This document shows positions 39,000 to 64,000 of a stretch of 64,000 nt of DNA, one piece after another. The notes beneath the pieces are model-generated. The model worked only from the letters and a program-made list of their open reading frames with translations, did no database searches and was not told the origin of the DNA. How positions within the stretch are numbered: the first letter of the stretch is position 1; the number at the start of each line of letters is the position of its first letter. Position numbers and translations under genes: made by a program. Origin of the DNA: Promethearchaeota archaeon (GTDB lineage Archaea > Asgardarchaeota > Lokiarchaeia > Sigyniarchaeales > SOKP01); assembly GCA_048938855.1 (NCBI GenBank), contig JBHLLT010000001.1:128001-192000 (forward strand), written 5' to 3'.

Positions 39000-39157
39000 G
39001 ATTTAAGATAAATTTTAAATTAAAATTAATATTCTTTTAATGATAATTATTGATTGCTCTATTAAATCTTTTAACAAATATAAAAGAATAAGCTAAAGAA
39101 CTTTTATTGGATAATTATTAAATAATTTAAAAAAAAAGTATAAAATCTTTTAGTAGA

Positions 39158-42332: not shown

Positions 42333-42824
42333 ATGGAACAAATTAATTACGAGGAAATTATCTCCCAGTTAAAATCTGATTTAAATGCTGAAAGTGCTAT
42401 TGCAAATAAATATGGAATTATCCTAGGCTCATTAATTAAGGAATTCGCTAAAGGAAAAGTCATTCCTCAAGCGATTTTATCCTTGATTGCTAATTCTAAA
42501 GAAATTGCTAATGAATTAAACATGAAAAAGATAAATTCTTTCGCATTAGAGGCCCAAAAATATAATTATTTATTTACTTTTAGCAAAGAATTAATTCTTA
42601 TTTCCAAATTAGATTTAAATGTAAATTTAGCAAAATTCATGCCTAACATTAGTTTGTTTTTAAAAAGATTAAGTGAGAGTATCACAGAAGAGGACATAAA
42701 AAATTTTTCAATGTTTGATTTTTCAAAAGAAGTTGCAAAAATTGAAGAAACATTAGAAGAAGAAAAAGTTAGAAAAGATAAATACTCAATAATAAAAGAT
42801 CTTGTAAAATATATTTCAAAATAA
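42333..42824 (+). CDS. Roadblock/LAMTOR-like domain protein
   Basis: Helix - ESAIANKYGIILGS - helix - three short strands - helix; resembles the roadblock segment of 43819..45876. Confidence 0.5.
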   Translation: MEQINYEEIISQLKSDLNAESAIANKYGIILGSLIKEFAKGKVIPQAILSLIANSKEIANELNMKKINSFALEAQKYNYLFTFSKELILISKLDLNVNLAKFMPNISLFLKRLSESITEEDIKNFSMFDFSKEVAKIEETLEEEKVRKDKYSIIKDLVKYISK

Positions 42825-42864
42825 TATTTTATATTAAAAAAAGAAAGCAAAGTAATATTAAAAC

Positions 42865-43617
42865 TTATTTTCTTTTGCCTTTTGGTTGTTTTTGATTCTT
42901 TAATTCTTCAATTTTTTGATCTTTTATTTTTAATTGAATTTCTACCGTATCGATCCTTTTTTTTATTTTTTCATTCTCTTTCTGCAAATCTTCAATGGTA
43001 TTTTTCTGGGTTTTAATTATATCTTTTTGATTATCTATTTGTTTTTGCATTGAAAAAGCTAACTTCTTTTCAATAAGTTTTTCTTGTTCTTTTAATCTAT
43101 CATTAAATTCATTTAAGTCAATATGCTCTCTTTGTAAATTGTGGATTATTGATTTTTGTTTGTTTACTTTATCTTGCAATTCCTTTACTAAGATCTCCAA
43201 TGGTTGATTTTTTCTTAAATCTTCCGTATTAATTACAATCGATGTTGATTTATTTTTTCTTTTTATTGTTTCAAGTTCTTGTTGGAGTTGTACTTTTTCT
43301 TTCCTTAAAAAGCCCATTCTATTTTTTAGATCTCTTATTTGTCTCTCGTTTTCTTCTATTTCTAGAGCCATTTTAGATTCAATTAATTTCTGTTTCTTAC
43401 TTTTATTATCATCATCCTCGTCTGGAAATAATGACTCCAGTTTCATAATTTGATCTTCCAGATTTTCTATCACTTCTAGATATTCAGAAATTTCATTTTC
43501 TTTCTTATTAAGCTCTGCTTCAAGTTCGTTAATTCGAGCCTTTAAAGCTTTAATTTCATTATTGGAACACTCATTCTTATCAGATAAATCTTCTGTCAAT
43601 TTTTGAAGAAACCCCAA
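42865..43617 (-). CDS. Coiled-coil protein
   Basis: Continuous E/K/Q/L heptad-type composition, basic C-terminus KQPKGKRK. Confidence 0.7.
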   Translation of the reverse strand: MGFLQKLTEDLSDKNECSNNEIKALKARINELEAELNKKENEISEYLEVIENLEDQIMKLESLFPDEDDDNKSKKQKLIESKMALEIEENERQIRDLKNRMGFLRKEKVQLQQELETIKRKNKSTSIVINTEDLRKNQPLEILVKELQDKVNKQKSIIHNLQREHIDLNEFNDRLKEQEKLIEKKLAFSMQKQIDNQKDIIKTQKNTIEDLQKENEKIKKRIDTVEIQLKIKDQKIEELKNQKQPKGKRK

Positions 43618-43818
43618 ATTTATTTTATACTTTAAATAAATTATCTTAATACAGATATTAAAATTTTATTTAACTAGATTATATCATTTAATCTTTTTTA
43701 CTTGTAATTAATTGATATTTTTTGATTTTTATATGATCGTTTAGTACATGAAGAGGGATATTTAGATATTTAAGAAACGATTAAGTTTATTTTTGAAAAA
43801 GTATATATGTTAAGAGCA

Positions 43819-45876
43819 TTATTTTACAGATACTAAAAATCTATAAGCCATAGAAAAGAAGGATTCATTAACATTTTCACCAGTTTTAGCAGAAGTAAGA
43901 ATATATTGAAAGTCATAATGATTTGCTAATTTTTTTATTTGGCTTTCACTGATAACAATTTCATCTTCTAAATCAGATTTATTTCCTACTATGATAGTAT
44001 TAACTACCTTTCCAATAAACCTGGTTATTTCATAATTCCATTTCTGAATTGACTCTAAACTATCCTGTTTTGTTCTATCTATAACTATAAATGCTGCATT
44101 GGCCCCCTCATAGAATCTTTTTCTATATGGACTCATTTGCTGGATTTGCCCTCCAACATCCCATATAGCAAAGTTTACTTTTGTATTTTTACCTAATTCT
44201 ACGGTTTTTTTAGAAATTTCTACTCCTACAGTACTCTGATAACTCTCTTTAAAAAGGTTTTTTACGAAGCGAAATATTAGTGAAGTTTTGCCCACTTTAT
44301 AGTCTCCTACTAATATCAGCTTTAAAGAATATTCACCCCTAGGTATTTTTCCATCCTTAGTTTTAGATAAAGTTTTTACTATTTCAGGAATTTCAAGAGA
44401 GACATTTTCATTCCCCTCTAGGATCATTTCTATTTTTCCTGCTATATGTTCTGAGAAAACTCTTAATTCGGTATCTGAGCTAGATAAATCTGAAATTGTT
44501 AACAAAATTGATTTTAATCCCATTGAACAATAAGAAAACTTTTTATCACTAATAGTCGTAATATTAAAAAAACTGGTTTGTTCTTCAAATTCTTTCTTTA
44601 TTCGATCTATATAACTATCAACCGAAGCAGCTATTGCTCCCAATACAGTCTCATCTCCTGCTTCTCCTTTACTCTCCGAAGTAATAATTAATCCTTCTCT
44701 ATCACATATAATTACAGCAATTATACTTTCAAGATTATCCATAAAATTTTTAATAAGAATTTTTAAACTAGTTTCTAGGTTTGATAATCCTTGATATTGA
44801 TTATCCTGACTTAAGGATGGAATACCTAAATTAGTTTTGATATCAGATAATTCAATCTTTCTGATACTTTCTTTCATTTTCAATTGCATTCGATAAAATG
44901 GTTCAGTATTATCTCCTAATTTTGATGAAATATCAATTAATTTGTTTAAAAGGTTGTCTACAGACTTAAGATTCTCATTCTTTATTGTATCTTCTAATTC
45001 ATTAATAAGTTTTTCTTTTTGAAAAAATAAATCCATTAATGGTAAAATGTTTTCTTTCATCATCAGAATCTCTGAGATTAAGAGAATTAGTTTATTTTTG
45101 TAATTAGAATCTATTCCAATAATTGGATATGAGTCTAATTCTAAAATCTCCTGGACTCTTGATACAGCAAGAGCATTTTCTAAATCTTGTTTATTTGCTA
45201 TTGCTATTGTATAGGCATATGGAACTTCTTCTTCTATTTTTTTTAAAAATAGTCTAGATTCTTCTGCATTTTTTAATGTAGAATCTGTAATTATAAATAC
45301 AGCATCGCTATCTCTAATAAAATTATTCCATAAAAATCCAATTTTCTCATCACCAGTAAAATCACGAATATAAAAGTATAAAGGCCCCACTTTTAATGTA
45401 GCAATTTCTGCTGAAATCTGAGGTTTGTTTTCTATAAAAATTTCGTTTGTTCTAAGAAGATTAGTAATCGTGGTTTTTCCCACTCCAGAATATCCAACTA
45501 AAGAAATAATGGGAGGAAATTTATTTTGAATCGTGTAAATTAATCGATCAATTTTTTCGATATGTTTTTCATCATCAAAAGAAAAGGAATCTGTTTCAAT
45601 TAATTCAAGAAAATCATCTTTAAACCTAATTATTTCCTTTTTAACTTTTTCAAAAGGATTATTCATAGTATTGATGAATATGAATAAAAAACTGTTTTTT
45701 AAGGCATAAGTAGTTCTAAATTTATAATAATCTTTAAATTCAACATCTTCAATTACACTAGACTCCTCTATAAGTGGTTTTATTAATTCTTCAACCAATA
45801 CATCATCTAAAGCGATTCCAAAACGTTTTACATAAATTTGGCTTTTATCTTTGTATATATACACTTCTTGTAAAAT
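43819..45876 (-). CDS. Multidomain GTPase: longin-like + Arf-like GTPase + helical + roadblock + Rab-like GTPase
   Basis: GYSGVGKTT/DFTG/NKQD; IIAVIICDREGLII (roadblock); GDYKVGKTS/STVG/WDVGGQ/NKSD/TSAKTG. The start is the GTG at 45864 or possibly the ATT at 45876. Confidence 0.85.
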   Translation of the reverse strand: MLQEVYIYKDKSQIYVKRFGIALDDVLVEELIKPLIEESSVIEDVEFKDYYKFRTTYALKNSFLFIFINTMNNPFEKVKKEIIRFKDDFLELIETDSFSFDDEKHIEKIDRLIYTIQNKFPPIISLVGYSGVGKTTITNLLRTNEIFIENKPQISAEIATLKVGPLYFYIRDFTGDEKIGFLWNNFIRDSDAVFIITDSTLKNAEESRLFLKKIEEEVPYAYTIAIANKQDLENALAVSRVQEILELDSYPIIGIDSNYKNKLILLISEILMMKENILPLMDLFFQKEKLINELEDTIKNENLKSVDNLLNKLIDISSKLGDNTEPFYRMQLKMKESIRKIELSDIKTNLGIPSLSQDNQYQGLSNLETSLKILIKNFMDNLESIIAVIICDREGLIITSESKGEAGDETVLGAIAASVDSYIDRIKKEFEEQTSFFNITTISDKKFSYCSMGLKSILLTISDLSSSDTELRVFSEHIAGKIEMILEGNENVSLEIPEIVKTLSKTKDGKIPRGEYSLKLILVGDYKVGKTSLIFRFVKNLFKESYQSTVGVEISKKTVELGKNTKVNFAIWDVGGQIQQMSPYRKRFYEGANAAFIVIDRTKQDSLESIQKWNYEITRFIGKVVNTIIVGNKSDLEDEIVISESQIKKLANHYDFQYILTSAKTGENVNESFFSMAYRFLVSVK

Positions 45877-46181
45877 AATGTAACACCAAAAATTTCGACT
45901 TTTAAATTAATATATATTAATATAAATATATTATTTCTGAATGAAAAATTTAATCTTTCTATTTATTTTTAATAAAGTGTTTATTTCTAATTGCTAAAAT
46001 TAGGAATTATGTTTCTCTTTTTAATGGTAAAAACATATTTATTGTATATTTATTAATCCTCAAGCAAATTGGTTTCTATACATGCAAGATCCTCTAAATA
46101 TAAATACTTATAATATCTATCAATTTATTAAAGCTATTTTGTATTTATCTAAATTTAATAAAAACAAAAACTATCTCTAAA

Positions 46182-49100
46182 ATGAAAATCTACAGAAAAT
46201 TATCAGAGTATAAAATAAACTCATTATTAATTTTACTGATATTTCTTATTATTCCAGCAATTCTTAGTACACCCTTATTAACGTTTCAAACCTCTCAAAG
46301 AAATGAGGATGAAGAAAATATTATAACACCAAAATTGAGTTCACCATCTCATGCTAACTATTTTTCTTTCTATAAAGAAATAACGATTGATCACAATAAA
46401 GTTGCAGGATCAAGTACTTATACAGATTTTCCAGTTCTAATTTCAATTACAGATACAGATTTACGAGTTAAAAGTCAAGTTGACGGAGATGATATTGCAT
46501 TTGCTTATGATAATAATTGGTTAGATCATGAAATTGAATTATTTGATCAAGCTTTCAATTCAACTCATGCTAGATTAGTTGCGTGGGTTCTAGTCCCTTC
46601 TTTGTCTGGTATTACTGACACAGTTATCAGAATGTATTATGGTAATTCAACTATGAATTCCCAACAAAATCCTTCGGGAGTATGGATAAAAGATTATAGA
46701 GGTGTTTGGCATTTAGATGAACAAACTGGTGGAACAGATGCTATAATTGATTCAACTTCATATTCAAATGATGGAACAGACGTCAATAGCCCTCAGCTTG
46801 GTCAAAATGGTCAGATTTATGACTCTGTGGGGTATACTGATTCTTCAGGGCAGAGAATTCAAGTTGCTGATGATACAAGTTTAGATATCTCCAATGAACT
46901 GACTGTGGAAGCATGGATAAATCCAAGTTATAATAACAAATGGATGACCATAGTAAGTAAAATGGCTGGGTCATGGGGAGGTGGATTATTATCCGATTTT
47001 GACATTTATGTTGCAGTTAATGATTGGGGGACTTTCGATATTGGACTTGCAAACCCTTCAGATTCATATAATGAATGGCAGTCTTCTGTATATTTTTCTA
47101 CTGGAACTTGGCAACATTTTGTCTTTACTTATCAAAGCTCAACTTCAATGGGGCGAATTTTTGTAAATGGTGTATTTATGGAATCACACGATTTTGGAAT
47201 TGGAACAATTGGTACGAATGGAAATCCTTTTTATATTGGTTTTAATAGAGGATGGACGGGAGAAGTTTTTGATGGATTAATTGATGAGGTTCGAATTTCA
47301 AGTATACCTCGGTCATCTGGATGGATATACACCGAATATCAAAATCAAAATGATCCTAGTTCATTTTATTCAATTGGATCAGAGAAAATTGTAGCTTCAA
47401 CACCACCTAATGCTGATTTTTTTACATTCTATAAAATTATCTCAATTGATCATAATAGAGTAGCAGGAACTGGCAGTCATAGTAATTTTCCAATCCTATT
47501 ATCTTTGATTGATAATGATTTAAGATATCATACTCAATCAGATGGTGATGATATAGCTTTTTCAATTGGAGGTGATTGGTTAGATCATGAAATTGAGCTC
47601 TTTAATCAATCTTATAGTGCTACTCATGCTCAACTCATCGTATGGGTTCAAGTACCATTTTTATCTACAAGCACAGATACAATAATCACTATGTATTATG
47701 GTAATTCTACCATGAGTTCCAGAGAAAATCCGAATGGGGTATGGAGTTCAGATTATGTAGATGTGTTGCATTTAAAGGAAGACCCATCAGGAACCATATA
47801 TGATAGCACCTCTTATTCTAATGATGGTAGTTGTTTGGGATCTATGAATTCTTTAGATTTGATACCGAGTAAAATTGGCGAGGGCTTTGAATTAGATGGA
47901 GTTGATGATATGATTAGTGTTTCAGAAAGTTCTAGTTTGGATTCGATTAGTGATGGGGGCACTTTATCAATATGGGTAAAATGGGTTGATCCAACTGCCG
48001 GAAGATACCAACGTGTGATGACTACTAGTAATAGATTCCTTGCTAATCCGACTCCTCCACCTACACTCATCCAAAGTGATGGTTTTGAATGGGCTGTACA
48101 ACCTGATGGAGATCATTTTTTTTATCCCTGGGGAGGAGATAGCATAGATTATAATCTTGCTATAAATCCTTTTGCTAATAGTTATTGGCATTATCTTGTG
48201 TTAACTCTTAAATATTCAACAAAAAGTGTAATAATTTATTTAAATGGATCAGCTTTAAGTCTTTATACAGAAAATGTACCAACCCATTGGACCCAATTAG
48301 CTAATCTTGATGATTGGTTATGGGGTGGAAATAACATCGCAACTGGCGATCAGTTTCAAGGAATATTTGATGAAATCAGAGTTTCTAACGTAGCGCATTC
48401 AAGTGATTGGATATTAACTGAATTTAATAACCAAAATGACCCAGCTTCATTCTATTCGATTGGAGCAGAACAACTTGTTTTAACTAATCCAGTACATAGT
48501 AATTTTTTCAATTATTATAAGATAATTACTATTGATCATACAAAAGTTAATGGAATAGGGAGTCATATTAATTTTCCCCTTTTAATATCACTTTTGGATG
48601 AAGATTTACACTATGATGTACAAACTGATGGATATGATATTGCCTTTGCTTCAGATGGTAAATGGTTAGATCATCAAATAGAAAGCTTTAATCAAGATTA
48701 CAGTGGAACTGAAGCGGAATTAATTGTTTGGGTTCGGATTCCTTTCTTATCCACGGCTTTTGATATAAATATTACTATGTTTTATGGAAACTCTACAATG
48801 AGCTCACGAGAAAATCCCTCTGGTGTATGGATCTCTGATTATGTTGGTGTTTGGCATTTAACTGAAGACCCTTCAGATACTCCGCCACAGATAAAAGATA
48901 GTACAGAACCTCCTACTGATGGTTCATCATCTGGAACCATGTCTTCTTCAGATCAAGTTACAGGAATAATTGATGGTGCTTTAGATTTTGACGGATTTGA
49001 CGACTATGTTGATTTTGGAAACACAGGTGAAGTACAAATTACAGGAGAATTTACTGTTCAAGCATGGTTCAAAGCAGACATTTTTATAGATAATGATTAT

Positions 49101-52100
49101 TTAGTTGCAAAACATGATGGATCTGGTTTTCGAGGGTGGGATCTTAGTCTTGATGATGATCCTGGTATCAATCCTGATGGGTGGATAATGTTTAGATACT
49201 CACCTGATGGAACTAATATGGTTACAACAGGTTATGAAAGAGTAACAGTTGGTAAATGGTATCAAGTTGTAGGTATTTTTAAACCAAATGATTATTCGAA
49301 GTTTTTTTTAAACGGTACGCAAGTAGCTATAACAACAACTGGCGTTCCATCATCTATGAATGATCCCCCATACCCTTTACGTATTGCGAGAAGATCTGAT
49401 AGTTCTGCTTCTTGGTTCGACGGAATTATCGATGAAGTAAGAATTTCTAATGTAGCTCGTTCAAATGGTTGGATTACGACGGAATATAACAACCAATTTG
49501 ATCCTCTTTCTTTTTATTCTGTAGGATTAGAACAAACATCGAAACCCATGATATATGTAGATGCTCAAATTAATGCATTGGATTTATATGGTAATTTACT
49601 TCCAAATGTAACAATTTCAATGTATAAATTTACTCAATTAATAGAACGAGGCATCACTAATATTAACGGCATTGTAAGTTTCACTAACATTATTGAAGGG
49701 GACTATAATTTTACCGCAACCATTCGTTCAAATCTCGGGGATATTGTTGAAATTGTCAATTCAACATCTCAAGCAATTATGCTTGATCAACCATTTCAGA
49801 CCGTTGATTTAGTTTGCGATGTGAGTAGTCATTTCTTTGAAATAATTGATTTGGATCTTAACCCTGTTGAATCGGGATGGATAATAGTCGGGAACGCTAC
49901 ACATCCGCTTCAAAAGTGTATAATCGATCCCACAGGGCACACTACATTTTGGTGGGTCAATGTCTCTCCTTCTACCTACAATTACACGATCTACTATAAA
50001 AACCCTAATTATAACCCTCCTATAATTGAACTTGCTTCAGGCGACATAACTACTGTTAATGCGACCATTCAAGTGCAAGTCGAATTAACCACCGTAGGAT
50101 TAATTGTACAAACTATTAATGCACCTATTACGCCTGTTAGTGGCGCGAAACTTAAACTGACTCTAAACAATCCATTAGGACCAAGTATTGTAAATTTAAC
50201 CACGAATATAAATGGGCAAGCAAATTTAAGGTGGTTAACGTCCTTAGAGATTGGGGGGGATTATTCACTTCAAATTGAATTTTTTGGAGCTAATAAACTC
50301 TTTAATCAATCAGTTGGAGGTCCCGCTGAAGTTAATAATATTAGTTTCACAGTAACAAATCAAGATTACCTAGAATTTAGAATTTTAATTGATTTGAGTA
50401 AATTTCAAACTGAATTAATATCATTGAATCCAACAGATTATATTGAGGTCGAGTGGGGCACATTATTGAAGCTAAGGATGTTATTTAATGTGAGTAAAGT
50501 AGAAGTAGGGTATGAATCTCTTTTGGGACCAGTTTATGCAGACTCAATGAGTTATACTTTATTATTAGGGGGGAGTACTGTAATATCAGGAGCATTTTCC
50601 ATGGAAGAAAATAATGAAGGGAGGCATTTTGTAGATATTGATACCAAACTACTTGATAGTGCCGAGAGCTATATAATTATAATATCAGCCTATAAATCAG
50701 GATACACCATTCCTTCTGATAAAATATTTCAGCTAAATATTTTAGAAAATGAAGTAGAATTAAATCAATCAAGCAACGATGATTCAGATACACAAACCTA
50801 TTGGTCGGAAAATGTGGATATAACTTTAAATTCTTATGGCAGTAATTCTGAAACTCTTACTGTAGAAAATTTGGTCTTCCAAAGTATCGATCACGAATTT
50901 GATTTCTTAATTTCTGATATAGAAACTCATTGGAATTTATCAAAGATTGTATTAAATCTTTATAATATCTCTTGGAATGTTGGTATTACTGATATTAATG
51001 TTACAATCGAAGATCCTTATGGATATATTTACTTTTTCGATAATTCTACTCATCTTGGATGGGATTATGCTCAAGGTACATGGACAGGAATCGTTTTAAA
51101 TCTAAATAGAGCCAGTCGCACGAATGATAATAAGTTTGAGTTTCTCATCAGCGGAACCTTTGATAATACTATTGATATTATTGCAGATGCTTATTTTATC
51201 AGAGATAAAATAAATGTACAATATTCAAAATTCAATATCAGCAACGAAATTTCCCTTCTAACTAAAGGAGAAGGATGGGTTATTAGTAATATCACTTTTG
51301 AAATTTTTGACTGTTATGATAGTTCCGATTGGAGCGTCGTAGATTTAAGTTTAACTGACCTAAACATTACTACCAACGAGGGGTTCACATATTCATTAGA
51401 TTATGGGTATCCAGATGGAACTGGTCTCTTAAGCATTGCCGATTCCTTTATATACCCTATAGGAAATCAATTCTTATTTACAGTTGAAACGGATCCTAAT
51501 ATCATCTTTAACGCCATTATTAAGGTGGAATATATTCAAGGTTTTTATAGGAATCAATTTTTAGAAACTTTAAATTGTACAAAAACAGAACGAGGGATTA
51601 CAAATGGAGGGTCGTTTCAAATAAGTGCTTCCGGGAGTAACTGGAGTGAACATGAAGCTATATTATGGATTAAAAACATAAAAAGTGGTCCAACTTATTA
51701 CTTTCCCTCTGAGATTGCAATGAATATCACGATTGGAGGGCAAAAATATAGTATTTCGGATTATGCTTCAGGAATAGGGACTTTATCACTTTCAGGATTC
51801 TCTAAAGAACAACTCTTACATGCAGTTATTGAAACCTCTTTAATGGTGGATTTTACTCTTTTACTTTCAATTCAATATTCACGATTAGCCTCTTATGAAA
51901 TAATTGGTTCATTAATTTATACTATTGTTGAAGCCCCTTCTATTTATGGTTCAGTGCAATATGATTCAGATTTGGGATATTATCTAAAGACAATCGATAC
52001 TTCTTTACTTGATGCTGATGAATACACTGTTAGATTCACGGTAAATAAACCCCATTATAAGATGACCGCTAAAGATTTTAAATTAATCGTCTTAAATCGC

Positions 52101-54200: not shown

Positions 54201-54211
54201 TAATAAAACTA

Positions 54212-54221
54212 TTTTTTTTTT
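54212..54221 (+). terminator. Archaeal poly-T terminator (putative)
   Basis: T10 tract 11 nt after the stop of gene A; a matching tract follows gene B. Confidence 0.45.
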
Positions 54222-54365
54222 AAATTATTTTTAGCTTGTAAAATAACTATAATTAATAACTAATCTATATCCTTACAAACTTCAAATATAAATATGTAAT
54301 ACGCTATTCTTTTTTTAATATATATATTTTACACAAACTAATTTTATATTTGAATTTGATCAAAA

Positions 54366-57300
54366 ATGAAATCTAATAAATTTAGATCAATCAATACGAA
54401 AAAGAAGATTGAGGCACTTCTGTTCTTATTGTTCACAATTATAATCCCAATGTTAATTAGCACACCATTATTCTCAATATCACCATATAATGATTCTTTA
54501 AATAATAAAGATACTAACGATGATCTCAAAGAAAAACTGAATTTAAATGCTCCCCTCAATGCCCGTTATTTTGATCATTATAAATCAATAACGATAGATC
54601 ATACTCAAGTTTCAGGAGCGAGTGGTTTAATCAATTTTCCTTTTCTCATCTCAATTTTTGATACAGATTTACGTTTTGATGTACAATCCGATGGAGACGA
54701 TATTGCTTTTTCCTCCAATAATGTTTGGTTAGATCATGAAATTGAGTTATTTGATCAAACATATAATAGTACACATGCTAAACTTGTAGTTTGGGTTCGA
54801 ATTCCCGTACTCTCCGTTACTATTGATACTAATCTTAGAATGTACTATGGTAACTCCACAATGAATTCACGACAAAACCCAACTGGAGTATGGAATAGTA
54901 ATTATGTAGCGGTATGGCATATGAATCAAGATCCTTCATCTTCTAATATTTTAGATAGTACTTCAAATAATTATGATTTAACTACAACTGGATTTATAAG
55001 TGATACACGTATCTATAATGGAAAGGTAGGCACAGCAATTTCTGTTGATGGAAGTAATGATTATTTTTATATAAATAGTATCAATGGTCCTATTAATGAC
55101 ATGGCATTTCAAACTTGGTTTAAACCTGATAATAAGATCGATAATACCACCGCTAGAATGGATTTTTTCCAAGGTAATACACCTGATGTTTCACCAGAGA
55201 TGAGATTTACAACAAGTGGAACGGTTAATGTTTATTTAGAAGTAACTTCAGATAATAGTGAAGGATCTTATGGAATTACAGATTCCTGGGCCGCCGGTTC
55301 ATGGTCTCAATTTACTTATATAAGGGATATAAGCTTATCGAGAGCATATCATTATATAAATGGCACATTAGATGTAACAGATAGTAGCTCAGATAATGCA
55401 AATCCACACTTACCATGGAACCAATTTTCAATTTTAGCTGGGATTGGTGGATCAAATATTTGGGGTCCAGGGGCAATTTCAGAGTTTAGGATTCTAAGAA
55501 CTGTTCTTCCAAGCGGTTGGATATTAACAGAATATAATAATCAATATAATCCTAATTCTTTTTATACTATTGGAGAGGAAACTAGTGTTGTTTGGGAACC
55601 TCCTAATTCCCAATATTTCTCATATTATAAACTTATTACAATAGATCATAATGAAGTTTCTGGTAGTGGAATCCATAATAATTTTCCCTTTTTGTTTTCA
55701 TTTGTAGACAAAGATTTAAAATACCATGCTCAGCCAGATGGAGACGACATTGCTTTTGCTGCTAATGGTGATTGGTTAGATCATGATATTTTAATATTCA
55801 ATCAAACATATAGCAGCACAGAAGCTCAATTAACTGTATGGGTCCAAATTCCTAATTTATATTCTGATATAAATACAACTATTGCTATGTATTATGGAAA
55901 TTCAACCATGAGTTCTCGAGAAAACCCAGAGGGAGTTTGGGATAGTAATTATGAAGCTGTATATCATTTTGACAATGACTTTTTAGATGCCACCTCCCAT
56001 AATAGGGATGGAACAAATACAGGTTCTGTGAATGTCAAGGGGAAGATAGGGAATGGTCAAGATTTTGAACATGATGATTCAAGTGATAATATTAATATAG
56101 GAACGTGGAGCGTTTCGGGAAGTAAGATTACAATTCAAGCTTGGGTTAAATATGAATCTTTCGACTCAATTTGGTCAGGGTATAGTGATGCTCGTATTTT
56201 GTCTAAAAACTCAGGTACAAGTGATGGATCAGAATATCATGTTTGGATGCTCGGAACATATAATCAATCATTAACCAAAAACGGCCCGTATTTCTTGCGA
56301 GGAAGGATAAAGACTGGAGTTGATGATGCAGCTGGAACATCCACTGTAGAAGCTACATCAGGTCCTCTTTCAATCAATACATGGTATTTAGCTTCGATCA
56401 GATATGATGGCTCAAATATAAATCTTATTTTGGATGGAAACAATGTCTTAACATTAAGTAAAACAGGACCATTACGTGAAAATAATTGGCCAATTACAAT
56501 TGGAAATAGCCCAACGGGAGATAGACCTATTGATGCGATTATTGATGAGGTTAAAATTTCATCGACAACTAGATCAAATGATTGGTTAAAAACAGAATAT
56601 GATAACCAAAATGATCCTAGCACATTTGGTTCAGTAGGAGGAGAACAAATAGTAAATGATATTACTTCAAATGCTGATTATTTTGACTTTTATAAAATCA
56701 TTACTATTGATCACACAAAAGTTGATGGAACAGGAAGTCATGTTAATTTTCCTTTTTTGGTTTCGATTTTCGATAAAGATTTACATTTTGATGTTCAATC
56801 TGATGGAGATGACATTGCATTTTCATCTGATGGTAAGTGGTTAGATCATCAAATAGAATCATTTAATCAAAACTATAATAGTACACATGCTCAGTTAATT
56901 ACTTGGGTCCGTATCCCTTTTTTATCTACAGTAGAGGATACTGAAATAATCATGTACTATGGTAATTCTACTATGAATTCTCGTCAAAATCCAACTGGAG
57001 TATGGTTGGACTATAAATCAGTATGGCACCTTAATGAGCCAAGTGGAACGGGTGACTACATAAAAGATTCAACTTCAAATGGTTACGATGGAACCCCTTT
57101 TGGTACTCAATTTTCTGGAACAAGTATTATAGATGGAGCGAGATATTTTACAGGATCGGGTGATAATAGAATACTTATCAATCAAGGTTCTCAATTTTTT
57201 AATGGAGATCCTACATTTACATTTTCATTTTGGGTTTACCCAAATTATGCAACTGATGCAGAAATGGAAGCAACAGAAGGGAGAGTATTTTACAAACAAT

Positions 57301-60300
57301 CTTCTGTTAGAATGAATCGATTTTGGCGTCAAAATTGGATGCCTGCAGGTGATGCAAGATATCAATCTGATATTCAATTTACTACTTATGGTACGACATA
57401 TAATAATGTAGGGGTCAATCGGTTAAAATGGAACTATATTACATATTCCTATGATGGAACCTACCTAAAAACGTATGTTAATGGTTCACTAGGTCCTTCA
57501 TTAAATACAGGAGGATATCCGCTTATTGCAGATACAAGTTCCTTTTATCTTGGTGAAGCTTCAAATAGCTTTAAAGGATATTTAGATGAATTTAGGGTAT
57601 TAGATAGCTACAGATCTGATGGATGGGTTGCAACTGAATATAATAATCAATACAATCCTAATAACTTTTTCAATATAGGCAGTGAACAATATTCAAAACC
57701 GATTGTAGAAGTGGATGTTTCAGTTAATGCGTTGGATTTATATGGTAATTTGCTTTCTAATGTTACCATTTCAATGTACCAACATCTTGATCTAATAGAA
57801 CAAGATATTACGGGGATTGATGGTAATGTAAGTTTCACAAACATCATTGGAGGAGCCTATAATTTTACTGCAACCATTCGTTCAAATCTCGGGGATATTG
57901 TTGAAATTGTCAATTCTACATCTCAAGCAATTATGCTTGATCAACCATTTCAGACTGTTGATTTAATTTGCGATGTGAGTAGTCATTTCTTCGAAGTAAT
58001 TGATGTGGATCTTAACCCTGTTGAATCCGGATGGATTATAGTCGGGAACGCTACACAGCAGCTTCAAAAGAGTATAATTGATCCCATGGGGCACACTACA
58101 TTTTGGTGGGTCAATGCCTCTCCTTCTACGTACAATTACACGATCTACTACAAAAACCCCAATTATAATCCTCCTATAATTGAACTTGCTTCAGGCGATA
58201 TAACTACTGTTAATGCGACCATTCAAGTACAAGTTGAATTAACCACCATAGAGTTAATTGTACAAACTATTAATGCACCAATTACACCTGTTAGTGGCGC
58301 GAAACTTAAGCTGACTCTAAACAATCCATTAGGACCTAGTATTGTAAATTTAACCACGAATATATATGGGAAAGCAAATTTAAGGTGGTTAACCTCCTTA
58401 GAGATTGGGGGAGATTATTCACTTCAAATTGAATTTTTTGGATCTAATAAACTCTTTAATCAAACAGTTGGAGGTCCCGCTGATGTTAATAATATTAGTT
58501 TCACAGTAACTAACCAGGATAACTTGGAATTAAGAATCTTAATTGACCTGAGTAAATTTCAAACTGAATTAATATCGTTGAATCCAACGGATTATATTGA
58601 GGTCGAATGGGGCACGTTATTGAAGCTAAGGATGTTATTTAATGTGAGTAAAGTAGAAGCAGGGTATGAATCTCTTTTGGGACCAGTTTATGCAGATTCA
58701 ATGAGGATTACCTTGTTATTAGGGGGGAGTACCGTAATATCAGGAGCATTTTCCAAGGAACAAAATAATGAAGGGAGGCATTTTATAGAAATAGATACTA
58801 CACAACTTGATAGTGCATTGCGCTATATAATTATAATATCAGCCTATAAATCAGGTTACACCATTCCTTCTGATAGAATCCTACAATTAAATATTTTGGA
58901 AAATGAAGTAGAATTAAATCAATCAAACAACGATGATTCAGATACACAAACCTATTGGTTGGAAAGTGTGAATATGACATTAAATTCTTATGGCAGTAAT
59001 TCTGAAACTCTTACTGTAGAAAATCTGATCTTCCAAAGTATCGATCATGAGTTTGACTTTTTAATTTCTGATATAGAAACTCATTGGAATTTATCAAAGA
59101 TTGTATTAAATCTTTATAATATTTCTTGGAATGTTGGTGTTTCTGAGATAAACATTACTATTGAGGATCCTTTCGGAACAATATACTTTTTTAATAGTAC
59201 TACTCATTTGGGATGGGATTATGCTCAAGGTACATGGACAGGAATTATTTTAAATCTAAACAGAGCTAGTCTTACGAATGATAATAATTTTGAGTTTCTC
59301 ATCAGTGGTACCTTTGATAATACTATTGATATTGTTGCAGATGCTTATTTTATCAGGGACAAAATAAATGTACAATATTCAAAATTCAATATCAGCAACC
59401 AAATTTCCCTTCTAACTGAAGGAGAAGGATGGGTTATTAGTAATATCACCTTTGAAATCTTTGACTGTTATGATAGTTCCGATTGGAGTGTCGTAGATTT
59501 ATCAAGTCTTACCGACCTAAACATTACAACCAACGAAGGGTTCACATATTCATTAGATTATGGGTATCCAGATGGAACTGGTCTCTTAAGTATTGTCGAT
59601 TCCATTATATATCCTATCGGAAATCAATTCTTATTTACAGTTGAAGCGGGTCCTAATATCATTTTTAATGCCATTATTAAGGTGGAATATATTCAAGGCT
59701 TTTATAGGCATCAATATTTGGAAACTTTCAATTGTACAAAAACAGAACGAGGGATTACTAATGGAGGGTTGTTTCAAATAAGTGCTTTCGGGAGTAGCTG
59801 GAGTGAACATGAAGCTATATTATGGATTAAAAGCATAAAAAGCGGTCCAACTTATTACTTTCCTTCAGAGATTGCAATGAATATCACGATCGGAGGGCAA
59901 AAATTTAGTATTTCGGATTATGCTTCAGGAATAGGTACTTTATCCCTTTCAGGATTCTCTAAAGAACAACTCTTGCATGCAGTTATTGAGACCTCTTTAA
60001 CCGTGGATTTTACTCTTTTACTTTCAATTCAATATTCACGATTAGCCTCTTATGAAATATATGGTTCATTAATTTATACTATTGTTGAAGCCCCTTCTGT
60101 TTATGGTTCAGTGCAATATGATCCAGATTTGGGGTATTACCTAAAGGTAATAGATACTTCTTTACTTGATGCTGATGAGTATACTGTTAGATTCACGGTA
60201 AATAAACCCCATTATAAGATGACCACTAAAGATCTTAATTTAATCGTCTTAAATCGCCCCACATTGCTAAATCAAACCTCAGATTTTTTCAGGAAAATCG

Positions 60301-62354
60301 AAAGTGTTTATGTGAAGGATGCTGTTAATTTTACTTTTGTCTATACTGATGCACTCAGAGGAAACAAAATTAGCAACTTAAAGACTCAATATTATGCCTG
60401 GGAACGTTATGATAGTGAAGGGAATGTAATTGAAAGTGGTAATGGAAATATAATTACTGCTATAGGTAATACTTACATCTTGGATTTCAACACTGAATCC
60501 AGAGCTTTAGGTGAATATTTCTTGATTATGGCTTTAGAAAAAGATAATTATGACCGTAAGAATGCGATGATTATTCTAACCATTAAAAAGAGAGAAATAA
60601 ATCAACCTATTTTAAGTGATAACTTTCAAAATAGGAAAACGAATGTAGTAAAAGGTACACCGGTTCCAATACAAATCATTCTAACTGATCCTACTAAATA
60701 TGATAGTAGATTGCGTAATGCTACAATAACTTTAACAATAAGGGGAAATCTATATAATTTTACGGAAATTGGAAACGGAACCTATATTTTGGATTTTCCA
60801 ACATATAATATAAATGCTTTTTTCACATCAAATACACTCACGGGGACTATAAATATTACAAAAGAAGATTATATTTCTCAAGAATTTGATATTATCATTG
60901 TTGTGGAGATGGAACAAATCTTTCCTGGTGTTCCTACATTTTATTTCTTACTGATTTTATCTGCAGCTCTTGCCTTAGTTGGGAGTATTGTAGGATATAG
61001 AGTTGTCCATAACGCTAGAATACCCGCATTCGTAAGAAAAGTAAGGGAGATTGAAAAAAGCATTAAAAAAGGCAAAAAAATTGATGAATCTTTATTGTAC
61101 CGCAGTAAAGATGCTTTTATTGTAGAGAGAGTAAATTACAAATGGAAAAATCTTGATTTGTCGTTGGCAGAAATATTAAATCTCAAGATAGAGAAAATTA
61201 AGAAGAGTGAACAATTACAAAAGAGATCTAGTGATATTGCAAAAGTTCATGAATTAAAGCCAGTTGGATTAGTGTTGATGAAATGGAATGAAAGAATAGG
61301 AACAGAAATTTTAGCAAAATATCCGGAAGAAACCATAATTTCAGAAAAAACTTGTATGCAAATATATAGTACACATGAATATAGTGGAGAAAAAGGAACA
61401 ATAACATTGACAGTTGGTTCTCTGAATATTATTTCGTATTACACAGGACCTGAACAAGGTTATTATCTTCTTTTAATTTTAGAGTTAGAGGATGATTCGG
61501 ATCTTTATGAAGGAGGAATGGCTGATGTTTTACGAAACATCTTAGAAAATGTTGAAGATGATTCATATAAAACGCTTATACCATCTTACTTTCAGCGTCT
61601 ATCGTTATATCCATCTTTTAGTGATGAGGAAATATTAGCACTTACCTATCAAGATGACGCTAAAAGAATGATTATTGATAATTTAAGAGAAACAGGAGTG
61701 ATAAGTAAATCAGAATTAGATATCTGGTTTAAGGATAAGTACCTGGAAAAGTTTGTTGATGTAGAAGCCACTGTATCCGATTTGCTAAAGAAAGGAATTA
61801 TTAAACAGTTTTCTGTAAAAGGATTACTCTCAGAATTAATTGCTTTAATTTATGATGTTTTTATGTTGAGGGTTCCTCCTTTAGATTTAATCGAAGATCC
61901 TATTAATCGTGGACTTCCAACACAATTTAAAAAAGAATATATAGATTTGGTGAAGAAATTTTTCCGAAGTTATATCCCAACTAATGAGGATAATTTAAAG
62001 ATTGTTAAACTTTTGAGTAATCCTCAAGTTCACTTAACACTAAGGTTATTAAGAAGTACTATTGTCTCAAGACAGGAATTAGAAAAATTGAAAGTAAAAG
62101 GAGTTGCTGATCCATATGGTGTAGTTAAAGCTTTATGGGATAACCAATTGATTGCAGTTTTCCAAGATGAAATGAAGAATGAGTATTATGCACTTCTAAC
62201 TGATTTTTATATAGATTTGATATTTCCAAAATATATTTTACAAATCATTAAGACTTCATATGAACAGAAATCATTGACAGATAAAGTATTGATAGAATAT
62301 CTTGAAACCCTTGAAGACGTTTATTATAATCTAAAATCAGAAGAAAAAAAATAG
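54366..62354 (+). CDS. Giant receptor-like surface protein B (paralogue of A, same architecture)
   Basis: Same three DUF2341+LamG-like cassettes and stalk; TM FYFLLILSAALALVGSIVGY near 60940-61000; tail GLVLMKWNERIGTEILAKYP. Confidence 0.85.
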   Translation: MKSNKFRSINTKKKIEALLFLLFTIIIPMLISTPLFSISPYNDSLNNKDTNDDLKEKLNLNAPLNARYFDHYKSITIDHTQVSGASGLINFPFLISIFDTDLRFDVQSDGDDIAFSSNNVWLDHEIELFDQTYNSTHAKLVVWVRIPVLSVTIDTNLRMYYGNSTMNSRQNPTGVWNSNYVAVWHMNQDPSSSNILDSTSNNYDLTTTGFISDTRIYNGKVGTAISVDGSNDYFYINSINGPINDMAFQTWFKPDNKIDNTTARMDFFQGNTPDVSPEMRFTTSGTVNVYLEVTSDNSEGSYGITDSWAAGSWSQFTYIRDISLSRAYHYINGTLDVTDSSSDNANPHLPWNQFSILAGIGGSNIWGPGAISEFRILRTVLPSGWILTEYNNQYNPNSFYTIGEETSVVWEPPNSQYFSYYKLITIDHNEVSGSGIHNNFPFLFSFVDKDLKYHAQPDGDDIAFAANGDWLDHDILIFNQTYSSTEAQLTVWVQIPNLYSDINTTIAMYYGNSTMSSRENPEGVWDSNYEAVYHFDNDFLDATSHNRDGTNTGSVNVKGKIGNGQDFEHDDSSDNINIGTWSVSGSKITIQAWVKYESFDSIWSGYSDARILSKNSGTSDGSEYHVWMLGTYNQSLTKNGPYFLRGRIKTGVDDAAGTSTVEATSGPLSINTWYLASIRYDGSNINLILDGNNVLTLSKTGPLRENNWPITIGNSPTGDRPIDAIIDEVKISSTTRSNDWLKTEYDNQNDPSTFGSVGGEQIVNDITSNADYFDFYKIITIDHTKVDGTGSHVNFPFLVSIFDKDLHFDVQSDGDDIAFSSDGKWLDHQIESFNQNYNSTHAQLITWVRIPFLSTVEDTEIIMYYGNSTMNSRQNPTGVWLDYKSVWHLNEPSGTGDYIKDSTSNGYDGTPFGTQFSGTSIIDGARYFTGSGDNRILINQGSQFFNGDPTFTFSFWVYPNYATDAEMEATEGRVFYKQSSVRMNRFWRQNWMPAGDARYQSDIQFTTYGTTYNNVGVNRLKWNYITYSYDGTYLKTYVNGSLGPSLNTGGYPLIADTSSFYLGEASNSFKGYLDEFRVLDSYRSDGWVATEYNNQYNPNNFFNIGSEQYSKPIVEVDVSVNALDLYGNLLSNVTISMYQHLDLIEQDITGIDGNVSFTNIIGGAYNFTATIRSNLGDIVEIVNSTSQAIMLDQPFQTVDLICDVSSHFFEVIDVDLNPVESGWIIVGNATQQLQKSIIDPMGHTTFWWVNASPSTYNYTIYYKNPNYNPPIIELASGDITTVNATIQVQVELTTIELIVQTINAPITPVSGAKLKLTLNNPLGPSIVNLTTNIYGKANLRWLTSLEIGGDYSLQIEFFGSNKLFNQTVGGPADVNNISFTVTNQDNLELRILIDLSKFQTELISLNPTDYIEVEWGTLLKLRMLFNVSKVEAGYESLLGPVYADSMRITLLLGGSTVISGAFSKEQNNEGRHFIEIDTTQLDSALRYIIIISAYKSGYTIPSDRILQLNILENEVELNQSNNDDSDTQTYWLESVNMTLNSYGSNSETLTVENLIFQSIDHEFDFLISDIETHWNLSKIVLNLYNISWNVGVSEINITIEDPFGTIYFFNSTTHLGWDYAQGTWTGIILNLNRASLTNDNNFEFLISGTFDNTIDIVADAYFIRDKINVQYSKFNISNQISLLTEGEGWVISNITFEIFDCYDSSDWSVVDLSSLTDLNITTNEGFTYSLDYGYPDGTGLLSIVDSIIYPIGNQFLFTVEAGPNIIFNAIIKVEYIQGFYRHQYLETFNCTKTERGITNGGLFQISAFGSSWSEHEAILWIKSIKSGPTYYFPSEIAMNITIGGQKFSISDYASGIGTLSLSGFSKEQLLHAVIETSLTVDFTLLLSIQYSRLASYEIYGSLIYTIVEAPSVYGSVQYDPDLGYYLKVIDTSLLDADEYTVRFTVNKPHYKMTTKDLNLIVLNRPTLLNQTSDFFRKIESVYVKDAVNFTFVYTDALRGNKISNLKTQYYAWERYDSEGNVIESGNGNIITAIGNTYILDFNTESRALGEYFLIMALEKDNYDRKNAMIILTIKKREINQPILSDNFQNRKTNVVKGTPVPIQIILTDPTKYDSRLRNATITLTIRGNLYNFTEIGNGTYILDFPTYNINAFFTSNTLTGTINITKEDYISQEFDIIIVVEMEQIFPGVPTFYFLLILSAALALVGSIVGYRVVHNARIPAFVRKVREIEKSIKKGKKIDESLLYRSKDAFIVERVNYKWKNLDLSLAEILNLKIEKIKKSEQLQKRSSDIAKVHELKPVGLVLMKWNERIGTEILAKYPEETIISEKTCMQIYSTHEYSGEKGTITLTVGSLNIISYYTGPEQGYYLLLILELEDDSDLYEGGMADVLRNILENVEDDSYKTLIPSYFQRLSLYPSFSDEEILALTYQDDAKRMIIDNLRETGVISKSELDIWFKDKYLEKFVDVEATVSDLLKKGIIKQFSVKGLLSELIALIYDVFMLRVPPLDLIEDPINRGLPTQFKKEYIDLVKKFFRSYIPTNEDNLKIVKLLSNPQVHLTLRLLRSTIVSRQELEKLKVKGVADPYGVVKALWDNQLIAVFQDEMKNEYYALLTDFYIDLIFPKYILQIIKTSYEQKSLTDKVLIEYLETLEDVYYNLKSEEKK
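57826..61072 (+). repeat. Copy 2 of the ~3.2 kb near-identical direct repeat
   Basis: Collinear with 49670..52915, mostly single-base differences plus one codon indel (DLSLT vs DLSSLT). Confidence 0.9.
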
Positions 62355-62364
62355 GAAATATCAA

Positions 62365-62374
62365 TTTTTTTTTT
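62365..62374 (+). terminator. Archaeal poly-T terminator (putative)
   Basis: T10 tract 10 nt after the stop of gene B. Confidence 0.45.
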
Positions 62375-62805
62375 ATTTTATTTCCAAATAAGAAACAATC
62401 TTACATATTTATTTAAAATTTTTATCTAAATAATTCTTAAAAGAAATTATCTTAAATTCCACAAGAATAATGAAATTATTCTTATTAACCCATAAAATGA
62501 TAATAGCGCTACTTTATTTCATATTTTATTAGGATTAATATTATTAAAAATTTAGTTTAATGGCAAAAAAAAATAAATAACTAGATTTACATTAATTGAA
62601 CAATATATATCTGTAAATTTTTTTAGTGATATTAAGAATATTTTTAATAAAAAAATATAAAAGTCTAAATAAAAGGAAATTTGGTATTAGTTATTTAATC
62701 AAAAATAAAATAAAAGCCAATTAATAATTAGTATTAAACATAATATTGTAATTGAATATATATTAGTTGTAATGTGAATTTTTAATAAATATTGCATACC
62801 TCATC

Positions 62806-62810
62806 GGTGA
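62806..62810 (+). promoter_or_regulatory. Shine-Dalgarno-like GGTGA upstream of a putative ATT start
   Basis: GGTGA-aataac-ATT CTA AGG; 6-nt spacer. Confidence 0.5.
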
Positions 62811-62816
62811 AATAAC

Positions 62817-64000
62817 ATTCTAAGGCAAATTTTAATATATAAAGGTACTGAGCTCTTATATTATAGACATTTTGGTAAAGCTCTTAAACAAGAAGTCTTA
62901 AATTATCTCGTTTCAGAGATTATAAAAGATGAAGATACAAGAAAGGAGGACAGAGTTGAATCTTACGATTATTATAAATTCAAGGTTTCTTACATAACAA
63001 AAAAAGATTTAGGTATAATAATATTATTCCTTTCGGGTTTAACAGATAAATTTGAAAATATAAAAAAGGAATTATTAAGATGCAGAACTGATTTTATTAA
63101 TTTATTTGAAGAAATCTTAAATGAAAGATATGACAAAAAAACTTTTGAGGTTTTTGATCCAGTTGTTGATTCAATCCATAAAAATCTTCGACCAAAAATC
63201 TCACTAGTTGGATTTTCTGGAGTTGGCAAAACAACTATAACAAAATTAATAAGAGCAGAAGAGATCCCCGTACAACATATTCCTACAATTACAGGTGATA
63301 TTGCAACCGTTAAAATAGGAAAGTTGCATTTTCATTTATGGGATTTTGCTGGACAAGAACAATTCAGTTATCTCTGGAATAACTTTATTAAAGGTAGTGA
63401 TGCGGTTATTTTAGTTACAGATTCTACTTTAGAAAATGTTGATAAGAGTAAGTTCTTCTTAGAATTAATTAAAGAGCAAGCACCTTATGCTCACACAGCA
63501 ATAATTGGGAATAAACAAGATTTAAAAGAAGCTTTATCGCCCGTTCAAATTGAGAACTTTTTGGGTTTAAAAGCCTATTCAATGATTGCAAATGATCCTA
63601 ATAATCGAGATAAGATGATTAAAATTATCGCGGATATATTAGAAATGAGTGCTGAAGTTTCACCCTTATTAAAGCCTTTATTAGAAAGAGATAAATTGAT
63701 AGAAGAAGCTAGTACTGCTTTAAAATTAGCTGATTTTGATAAAGCAGCTCTATTATTTGATAAAATAAGCTACTTATGTATTGAATTAGGTGATGATTCT
63801 CTTGGAAAAGAATTTTTTGAGAAGTCACAGAAAATTATAGAGATGTTGGAAAAAACAGAACCATCTCAACTAAGTCAACAAGGTTTAGGTATTTCTGAAG
63901 AAGTTGAACCGATAAAAAAAGAACAAAAAGTAAAACCACAAATCTCAATTAAAGCAGTAGAGGTTCCTCAACCATCATTATCTGGAAGATCTCAATCGGA
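62817..64000 (+). CDS. Longin-like + Arf-like small GTPase + TPR-like helical protein (runs off the right edge)
   Basis: Not in the ORF track; translated by hand: ILRQILIYKG..HFGKAL..KISLVGFSGVGKTT..HIPTITGD..WDFAGQEQFSYLWNNFIKGSDA..GNKQDL. It is a paralogue of the N-terminal half of 43819..45876. Confidence 0.88.
   Translation, partial: MLRQILIYKGTELLYYRHFGKALKQEVLNYLVSEIIKDEDTRKEDRVESYDYYKFKVSYITKKDLGIIILFLSGLTDKFENIKKELLRCRTDFINLFEEILNERYDKKTFEVFDPVVDSIHKNLRPKISLVGFSGVGKTTITKLIRAEEIPVQHIPTITGDIATVKIGKLHFHLWDFAGQEQFSYLWNNFIKGSDAVILVTDSTLENVDKSKFFLELIKEQAPYAHTAIIGNKQDLKEALSPVQIENFLGLKAYSMIANDPNNRDKMIKIIADILEMSAEVSPLLKPLLERDKLIEEASTALKLADFDKAALLFDKISYLCIELGDDSLGKEFFEKSQKIIEMLEKTEPSQLSQQGLGISEEVEPIKKEQKVKPQISIKAVEVPQPSLSGRSQS

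Follow-up and report, generated by a model that had tools for sequence, protein, structure and literature searches.

The locus considered here raises the question of whether a giant archaeal surface protein can be tied, through its cytoplasmic tail, to a eukaryote-like small GTPase. The window is a stretch of 64,000 nucleotides from a Promethearchaeota archaeon (contig JBHLLT010000001.1, here C34, positions 128001-192000; G, C, L, and f numbers denote our genomes, contigs, loci, and families). Its source genome, G000, measures 3.95 Mb with 30% GC and contains 102 small-GTPase-like open reading frames (ORFs). The initial annotation had described two giant membrane-anchored proteins, termed G1 and G2 here, with LamG-type heads and tails of about 450 residues after a transmembrane helix, flanked by paralogous longin-like plus Arf-like GTPases, termed A and B, and accompanied by a roadblock-like gene and a coiled-coil gene. 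The genes were found as described (Table 1). The reading preferred here, and held with moderate confidence, is that of a physical platform in which the surface protein would anchor a longin adaptor to the membrane, and a pair of longin domains would let this adaptor capture a longin-Arf-like GTPase.

The giant surface proteins and their tails

G1 and G2 were 63% identical overall, and each was found to comprise an N-terminal hydrophobic segment, three DUF2341 plus LamG_3 repeats, and a single transmembrane helix (residues 2201-2219 in G1 and 2192-2210 in G2) followed by 453 and 452 residues, respectively. N-glycosylation sequons numbered 36 and 41 outside and 1 and 0 inside for G1 and G2, respectively, and this excess outside fits a topology with an outer head, a single transmembrane helix, and about 450 inner residues. 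Between the giants, the heads were 12 to 70% identical per 100 residues, the stalks 81 to 94%, and the tails about 60%, a pattern that suggests exchange or swapping of heads together with homogenization of the stalks by gene conversion. The homogeneous stalk pair corresponds to window positions 49500-52800 and 57650-60950, the heads and tails being far more divergent. DUF2341-LamG genes lacking the tail were also observed on contigs C3, C32, C76, C87, and C91 of the source genome.

Each tail was resolved into a juxtamembrane motif of about 70 residues, in which a basic amphipathic helix comes after [RK][IFY]P, and an adaptor domain (367 residues in G1). The same motif was present in adaptor-adjacent surface proteins of the Loki, Odin, and Njord groups and of five further family groups, and it was retained behind unrelated ectodomains in at least eight families. 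The AF2 model of the G1 adaptor (predicted local distance difference test [pLDDT] 94.9) consisted of a longin domain followed by two winged helices, and the longin-like domain that the initial annotation had placed in the tail was confirmed by this fold; the two winged helices and the conserved juxtamembrane motif had not featured in it. The adaptor longin was matched to 8fw5_B with a Z score of 11.7 and a root mean square deviation of 2.7 Å over 118 aligned residues, tied within 1 Z with other longins. The best full-length Foldseek matches were GATOR1 chains (NPRL2/NPRL3; E = 2e-4), and NPRL2 clusters were the best eukaryotic matches in the Atlas (template modeling [TM] score 0.37, with whole-chain values of 0.22 to 0.37). 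The longins of the AP/COPI adaptors and of SRX-SRbeta were also among the matches. The C-terminal part alone matched ArsR/MarR, cullin, ESCRT-II, and MAGE winged helices at Z 7 to 8, which is the level of a common fold; NPRL2/3 was not among the top matches when this part alone was queried, a result compatible with kinship.

The DENN-type tail raised initially was not upheld. DENN structural matches were confined to residues 1-121, and a DENN module (uDENN plus cDENN plus dDENN) was rejected because the confident model has two winged helices after the longin; the plan is instead NPRL2/3-like. Pfam gave no useful family for the adaptor, with scattered weak helix-turn-helix (HTH) matches among homologues, and the NPR2/NPR3 models were found neither for the window tail nor among the 25 families listed for the 106 homologues.

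Across these 106 homologues, the conserved positions were W11 (92%), D12 (79%), G16 (95%), P24, H41, and S61. At the level of the motif, the WDxxxG spacing equals that of W33-D34...G38 in C9orf72, whose face carrying the WD motif holds ARF1 while SMCR8 provides the arginine; the W33G/D34K substitution abolishes the ARF GTPase-activating protein (GAP) activity (PMC8213707). In the beta4-beta5 loop of the adaptor, no conserved arginine was found, any arginine being present in 19 of the 106 rows, and a GP motif was seen in 15, the others having mostly GT, GA, or GV. The loop position was assigned from the model together with what we take to be the eukaryotic arginine-finger site. A catalytic GAP role is therefore deemed unlikely in the adaptor chain alone, there being no conserved arginine finger. 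The conservation pattern suggests that the adaptor is probably a noncatalytic, GTPase-holding scaffold.

Linkage of the adaptor to longin-Arf-like GTPases

A profile search recovered the adaptor domain, usually as its own gene, in 182 of 251 Asgard genomes. The carriers include the Odin, Baldr, Jord, and Njord groups and a family of 59 genomes that presumably represents Thorarchaeia. With a deeper profile, the adaptor was not found in 13 genomes of four families (f6, f15, f17, and f23), which possibly include Heimdallarchaeia.

Gene neighborhoods were counted for 107 full-length adaptor loci from 48 genomes outside the window's own family, scoring a GTPase whose start lay within 3 kb. A longin-Arf-like gene was found at 55 of these loci against 1.1 expected from copy numbers; about 17 would be expected if any small GTPase counted (an estimate based on about 75 candidates per genome). 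At the level of families, proximity was seen in 10 of 17 against 0.3 expected, and the linkage held in the window's own family too. The synteny put up for testing in the initial annotation, now of surface protein, adaptor, and longin-Arf-like GTPase, is thus conserved across Asgard genomes far beyond chance.

Full trios of these three genes were observed in five families. In L061 and L149, the surface protein gene comes first, then the adaptor, then the GTPase, and in L058 and L047 this order is reversed. In L195-L201, the trio comprised the adaptor, one or two surface proteins of 2100 to 2400 aa, and the GTPase, with one of the seven split into two ORFs. The form taken in the window's family is that of the arrays on contig C74 of the source genome, where three stand-alone adaptor genes each overlap the stop codon of a gene for a single-pass protein (1220 to 1463 aa). 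These single-pass proteins carry the same inner motif as the giants, and a gene for a longin-Arf-like protein of 361 aa is among the C74 genes.

Several further gene arrangements were observed around the adaptor. Two-helix anchors of 151 to 156 aa that have the juxtamembrane motif but hardly any ectodomain stand before an adaptor gene at three loci (L202:13304-13771, L203:12729-13196, and L204:8008-8460); these are either anchors in which the module persists without a head or remnants of deletion or decay. In loci of the Odin and Njord types (L029:6622-7041, L031:7307-7792, and L060:7064-7558), a gene for a basic protein of 140 to 165 aa, winged-helix-like in appearance, lies between the adaptor and the surface protein. 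Remote adaptor paralogues also occur beside surface proteins (L003:7505-9442 and L004; C16:35505-37442 and C62:55120-57327 in G000) and are followed by proteins of 646 and 736 aa, the one on C16 having an N-terminal TrmB-like winged helix (E = 1e-5).

Fused surface protein-adaptor copies were confined to the window's family among the families searched. In the tree, the fused tails formed one clade (100/99) nested in the two-gene forms, from which the fusion is deduced to be a single derived event. Such a fusion argues that surface protein and adaptor work together.

GTPases A and B

B was found to be a paralogue of A with an Arf-like domain whose motifs (GFSGVGKT, PTITG, WDFAGQ, and NKQD) include the switch I Thr and the switch II Gln. 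The best PDB match of its GTPase domain was Arf1 (E = 2e-28), and a longin-like domain of about 120 aa occupies the place of the N-terminal amphipathic helix typical of Arf. Pfam placed two GTPase domains in A, one Arf-like and one Ras/Rab-like, together with a weak Robl_LC7 match (E = 0.022), which agrees with the earlier description of A as a fusion to a roadblock and a Rab-like GTPase. The Arf switches of A read PQIS and DFTGD. All 7 A-type genes lack the switch II Gln and 6 of them lack the switch I Thr, and the Rab motifs of these genes are intact. In the tree, the Arf part of A formed a long branch within the B-type clade (100/98), and residues ~365-685 of A matched, at 50 to 62% identity, the stand-alone roadblock-Rab genes of about 325 aa present in most genomes of the family; G000 has no separate close copy (best 35%). 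Judged from its sequence, A is a chimera in which a B-derived copy with a degenerate Arf switch has been fused to a roadblock-Rab gene. The stand-alone roadblock-Rab gene almost always precedes a conserved gene of about 295 aa and of unassigned family (L037:14303-15187 and L156-L181), and G000 has the latter gene on C47 without a close stand-alone roadblock-Rab gene.

The longin-like N-terminal domains claimed for the GTPases were weakly supported. Clat_adaptor_s was matched in 10 of 49 homologues by Pfam, a weak indication, and Loki Arf-fusion proteins in the Atlas aligned to the tail longin; an Atlas feature search with the N-terminal domain of B gave no usable match.

Both genes most likely start at ATT (positions 45876 and 62817) rather than at the GTG/TTG of the ORF list. 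In each of the 13 family genomes examined, the start codons of B-type genes are ATT or ATA, preceded by a GGTG(A) motif; G213 and paralogues of the C74 and C43 types start with ATG. Genome-wide, ATT/ATA starts after Shine-Dalgarno-like motifs showed a 1.25- to 1.45-fold excess compared with 5.7-fold for ATG, so the generality of such starts is not supported. The conserved non-AUG start could limit or regulate translation. A frameshift at the start of B was rejected because the frame is open from 62811 and the orthologues start with ATT/ATA.

Insertion of the block

The roadblock-like gene lay 21 to 168 bp upstream of the B orthologue, with no receptor between, in all 11 family genomes chosen by their B orthologue (L182-L192) and in G213. 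The block of about 20 kb is missing from this position in L182-L192. It comprises the coiled-coil gene, A, G1, and G2 and separates the roadblock-like gene from B in G000 and its close relative G132. The same block was found in another context in G204, where a 250-aa ORF of like sequence follows A, and a coiled-coil homologue adjoins A in G132, G243, and, weakly, G192. G243 has two copies of the head-to-head unit formed by A and a giant (L215, C129), and in G210 (C9:430346-464784) five tandem fused giants are flanked by an A-like gene on one side and a stand-alone roadblock-Rab gene on the other. As far as gene order tells, A, which accompanies fused giants in G132, G204, G210, and G243, is their consistent companion, and B with the free roadblock gene is the landing site. 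The bracketing of the giants by GTPases is therefore partly incidental, since the block was inserted between a conserved roadblock-B pair. Of the module drawn in the initial annotation, A thus stood, as it travels with the giants, while the roadblock gene and B are a receptor-free pair in 11 of 11 relatives. B as a dedicated partner of G2 was dropped, given this adjacency and the tie of A to the giants. The third-position GC content of the block did not differ from that of the flanks, giving no sign of foreign origin.

Predicted complex and proposed mechanism

The tail-GTPase complex proposed at the outset was modeled for the G2 adaptor and B with GTP/Mg. The score was 0.36 against 0.00 for the best control. 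Contacts were reproduced between runs to at least 96%, and the partner pLDDT was at least 80. Of the pairs used for calibration, 58 of the 80 solved and 2 of the 110 mismatched reached the mark; at or below 0.60, 7 of the 80 solved pairs and both of the mismatches did. The predicted complex is accordingly taken to point weakly toward contact and carries little weight here, and likeness to solved longin-GTPase complexes may contribute to the score. The two modeled proteins are probably a noncognate pair.

Docking of the adaptor on the inner juxtamembrane motif is deduced with high confidence, and contact of the adaptor with the longin-Arf-like GTPase is considered likely. The domains and folds, the gene linkage, the order of fusion, and the degeneracy of A are established, and the physical contacts are deduced. 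As proposed for the ancestral Asgard form, the surface glycoprotein would span the membrane once, have an exchangeable ectodomain, and carry a short conserved inner motif on which a separate adaptor of longin plus two winged helices would dock. A dedicated Arf-like GTPase would pair its longin with that of the adaptor, which would hold the GTPase switch regions in the manner of C9orf72 with ARF1, and the GTPase would thereby be tied to the membrane place of the surface protein. In the Loki sub-lineage considered here, surface protein and adaptor were fused once and duplicated and gained A, a presumed private partner. The Arf half of A, its switch residues lost, would probably be a constitutive docking unit delivering a roadblock-Rab output, and B, the parent of A, may still cross-react.

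Several points weigh against the platform. The linkage counts overstate independence, the longin-Arf profile having been trained on adaptor-adjacent genes and the genomes being related; at the level of families, the spread is nevertheless wide despite this kinship. In 7 of the 17 families, Odin included, no adaptor gene was found within 3 kb of a longin-Arf-like gene, and in several families, the flanks read around the adaptor-GTPase pair held no surface protein. The WD match to C9orf72 is one of motif spacing, not of structural superposition. Finally, comparison of the GTPase N-terminal domain with the adaptor longin by hhalign was not significant (probability 2.3).

Alternative explanations

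An outside-in signal, in which a ligand or clustering of the LamG heads would alter GTPase exchange or hydrolysis through the adaptor in the role of guanine nucleotide exchange factor (GEF) or half of a GAP, would be an extension of the physical platform and not an alternative to it, and is entertained tentatively. The topology is receptor-like, the pairing of divergent heads with near-identical stalks is as in receptors of variable specificity, longin dimers serve as GEF/GAP platforms (PMC3747258, PMC10933270), and the conservons are a bacterial precedent for an operon of sensor, roadblock, and GTPase (PMC13343842). Such a role is made doubtful by the beta4-beta5 loop, with its scarce arginines and infrequent GP, and by the relatives that encode the 151- to 156-aa anchors, with inner motif and adaptor gene and almost no ectodomain. 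Moreover, a stalk of 1000 residues and a single transmembrane helix offer no obvious path for a signal except clustering. Glycan binding and an outside-in relay, both put forward in the initial annotation, would be inference only, as would the ligand and the direction of information flow.

The platform could also be put to an inside-out use, the two being uses of one platform. Here the GTPase-adaptor pair would sort, export, or pin the giant adhesins to protrusions or actin, with the inner motif as a sorting signal. The AP/COPI and SRX-SRbeta longins among the fold matches would suit this, as would the tandem winged helices, which recall ESCRT-II, and the closeness of the GTPase domain to Arf1; an ARF GTPase coprecipitates with Lokiactin in L. 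ossiferum (PMC13716822). One adaptor gene per surface protein and outright fusion are better suited to a permanent partner than to a recycling cargo adaptor, and positioning or trafficking of this kind is considered rather unlikely.

It is improbable that the tail is a membrane-tethered transcription regulator with DNA-binding winged helices and a longin sensor. The ArsR/MarR-type regulators were the best fold matches of the C-terminal part and weak HTH matches were scattered among the homologues, but the Z scores are at the level of a common fold that includes the cullin, ESCRT-II, and MAGE domains. The recognition helices begin with conserved acidic residues, with median net charges of 0 and −2.5 for the two domains and a median isoelectric point of 5.1, and the tie to one GTPase family would be left unexplained. 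A chance neighborhood in a genome with about 100 small GTPases, as the insertion between the roadblock-like gene and B might suggest, is very improbable and is largely refuted for the adaptor-GTPase link by 55 observed against 1 to 17 expected pairs, always of the same GTPase family and spread over 10 of 17 families and the window's own, and by the association of A with fused giants in four further genomes; chance retains force only in the case of B and the free roadblock gene.

Relation to known systems

The closest known plan is that of NPRL2/NPRL3 of GATOR1/SEACIT, the GAP for RagA/Gtr1. Npr2 and Npr3 are reported to have an N-terminal longin followed by three winged helices (PMC3521125), and the adaptor likewise has a longin followed by tandem winged helices, with these proteins as its best matches in the PDB and among eukaryotes in the Atlas. 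It differs in having two winged helices rather than three, in the lack of a conserved arginine finger and the mostly replaced GP, in its low whole-chain TM scores, in its link to an Arf-like rather than a Rag GTPase, and in being docked on or fused to a surface protein. The likeness is one of fold, no sequence-level homology having been found. The C9orf72-SMCR8 ARF GAP shares with the adaptor a WD motif four residues before a hairpin Gly, a longin without an arginine finger, and an Arf-type client (PMC8213707, PMC12290439); in contrast, the adaptor has no DENN domain, no SMCR8-like catalytic partner was identified, and the GTPase itself would supply the second longin.

NPRL2-like longins, longin-fused Arf/Rag-like GTPases, roadblocks, and a DENN-roadblock-Rab operon have been published for Asgard archaea (Liu et al., 10.1101/2020.10.19.343400; Tran et al., PMC10933270). 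In the accessible portions of these two accounts, fusions to two-component domains and the DENN operon are described, without a surface-protein partner. For MK-D1, Tran et al. report that GTPase genes generally lie outside operons with longins, and they call similar longin-GTPase fusions Rag-like by structure (PMC10933270). Among bacteria, the actinobacterial conservons (CvnA-D) and MglA-MglB resemble the module in that a prokaryotic operon joins sensor, roadblock, and small GTPase (PMC13343842, PMC13621833). The conservon sensor is histidine-kinase-like and its GTPase small and Ras-like, whereas here a giant lectin-like glycoprotein without a catalytic domain is combined with a longin-based regulator; no kinase-like domain was found in the tails or neighbors by Pfam or fold. 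The likeness to conservons is best treated as analogy, not homology. No description of a cassette of surface protein, adaptor, and GTPase was found in the literature searched, subscription papers lying outside that search.

Gene layout and neighboring genes

Table 1. Positions of the features discussed, in window coordinates
Feature	Position	Strand	Description
Roadblock-like gene, 163 aa	42333..42824	+	Left flank of inserted block; predicted-structure matches to Robl_LC7/LAMTOR3 clusters (Atlas)
Inserted block, ~20 kb (coiled coil, GTPase A, G1, G2)	42825..62816		Between roadblock-like gene and B; exact junctions approximate
Coiled-coil protein, 250 aa	42865..43617	-	Coiled-coil matches only (Pfam); companion of A-type genes
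GTPase A, 685 aa, probable ATT start	43819..45876	-	Longin-like, degenerate Arf-like, helical part, roadblock, intact Rab-like GTPase (Pfam, motifs)
Giant surface protein G1, 2672 aa	46182..54200	+	Signal segment; head of 3x DUF2341+LamG reaching about residue 1120; beta-rich stalk; transmembrane helix; fused cytoplasmic module
G1 transmembrane helix and juxtamembrane motif	52782..53050	+	Probable site of adaptor docking
G1 adaptor domain, 367 aa	53097..54197	+	Longin and two winged helices; W11-D12-x3-G16 motif; AF2 model
Giant surface protein G2, 2662 aa	54366..62354	+	Plan as G1; transmembrane helix at 60939-60995
G2 adaptor domain, 366 aa	61254..62351	+	62% identity to G1 adaptor domain
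GTPase B, ~626 aa, probable ATT start after GGTGA motif	62817..64000 (gene end 64697, beyond window)	+	Longin-like, intact Arf-like GTPase, then helical, low-complexity, coiled tail

The predicted structure of the 163-aa roadblock-like product matched Robl_LC7 clusters in the Atlas with TM scores of 0.55 to 0.58 by query, and a Pfam search of it gave no match. A 441-aa paralogue of the coiled-coil gene lies at C49:195762-197084 of the source genome (60% over 150 aa). Window positions 38028-42224 hold an NAD-dependent epimerase-like gene (by eye) and genes for a 761-aa multipass membrane protein and a 262-aa protein, the latter two products without a Pfam match; these genes form a conserved left flank in relatives. 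A 2122-aa protein (L001:13026-19394) with repeated helical or charged coiled segments, tetratricopeptide repeat-like by eye, is encoded 7 kb beyond the window end, and an E1/ThiF-like gene comes after it.

Biological meaning

Asgard genomes encode dozens to more than 100 small GTPases whose regulators are not matchable from gene order, and cultured Loki cells adhere and crawl, an ARF GTPase copurifying with Lokiactin but no membrane link being named there (PMC10933270 and PMC13716822, respectively). Against this background, the module singles out a particular surface protein, adaptor, and GTPase family for expression and assay, and the fused form supplies one-chain constructs. In its widest form, which we regard as unlikely in full, the proposal would be a receptor system, ancient among Asgard archaea, that lets variable lectin-like surface proteins govern an Arf-like GTPase by way of a longin adaptor of the NPRL2/C9orf72 type sharing ancestry with the eukaryotic longin GAP complexes; the system would have been rewired here by receptor-adaptor fusion and by a pseudo-Arf plug that would switch the output to a Rab-like GTPase. 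The adaptor was not found in the four families that possibly include Heimdallarchaeia, which bears on any claim of eukaryotic ancestry. The module is a prokaryotic counterpart of the longin plus winged-helix plan of the GATOR1 subunits, and it opens a connection between the cell surface and a eukaryote-like switch to testing.

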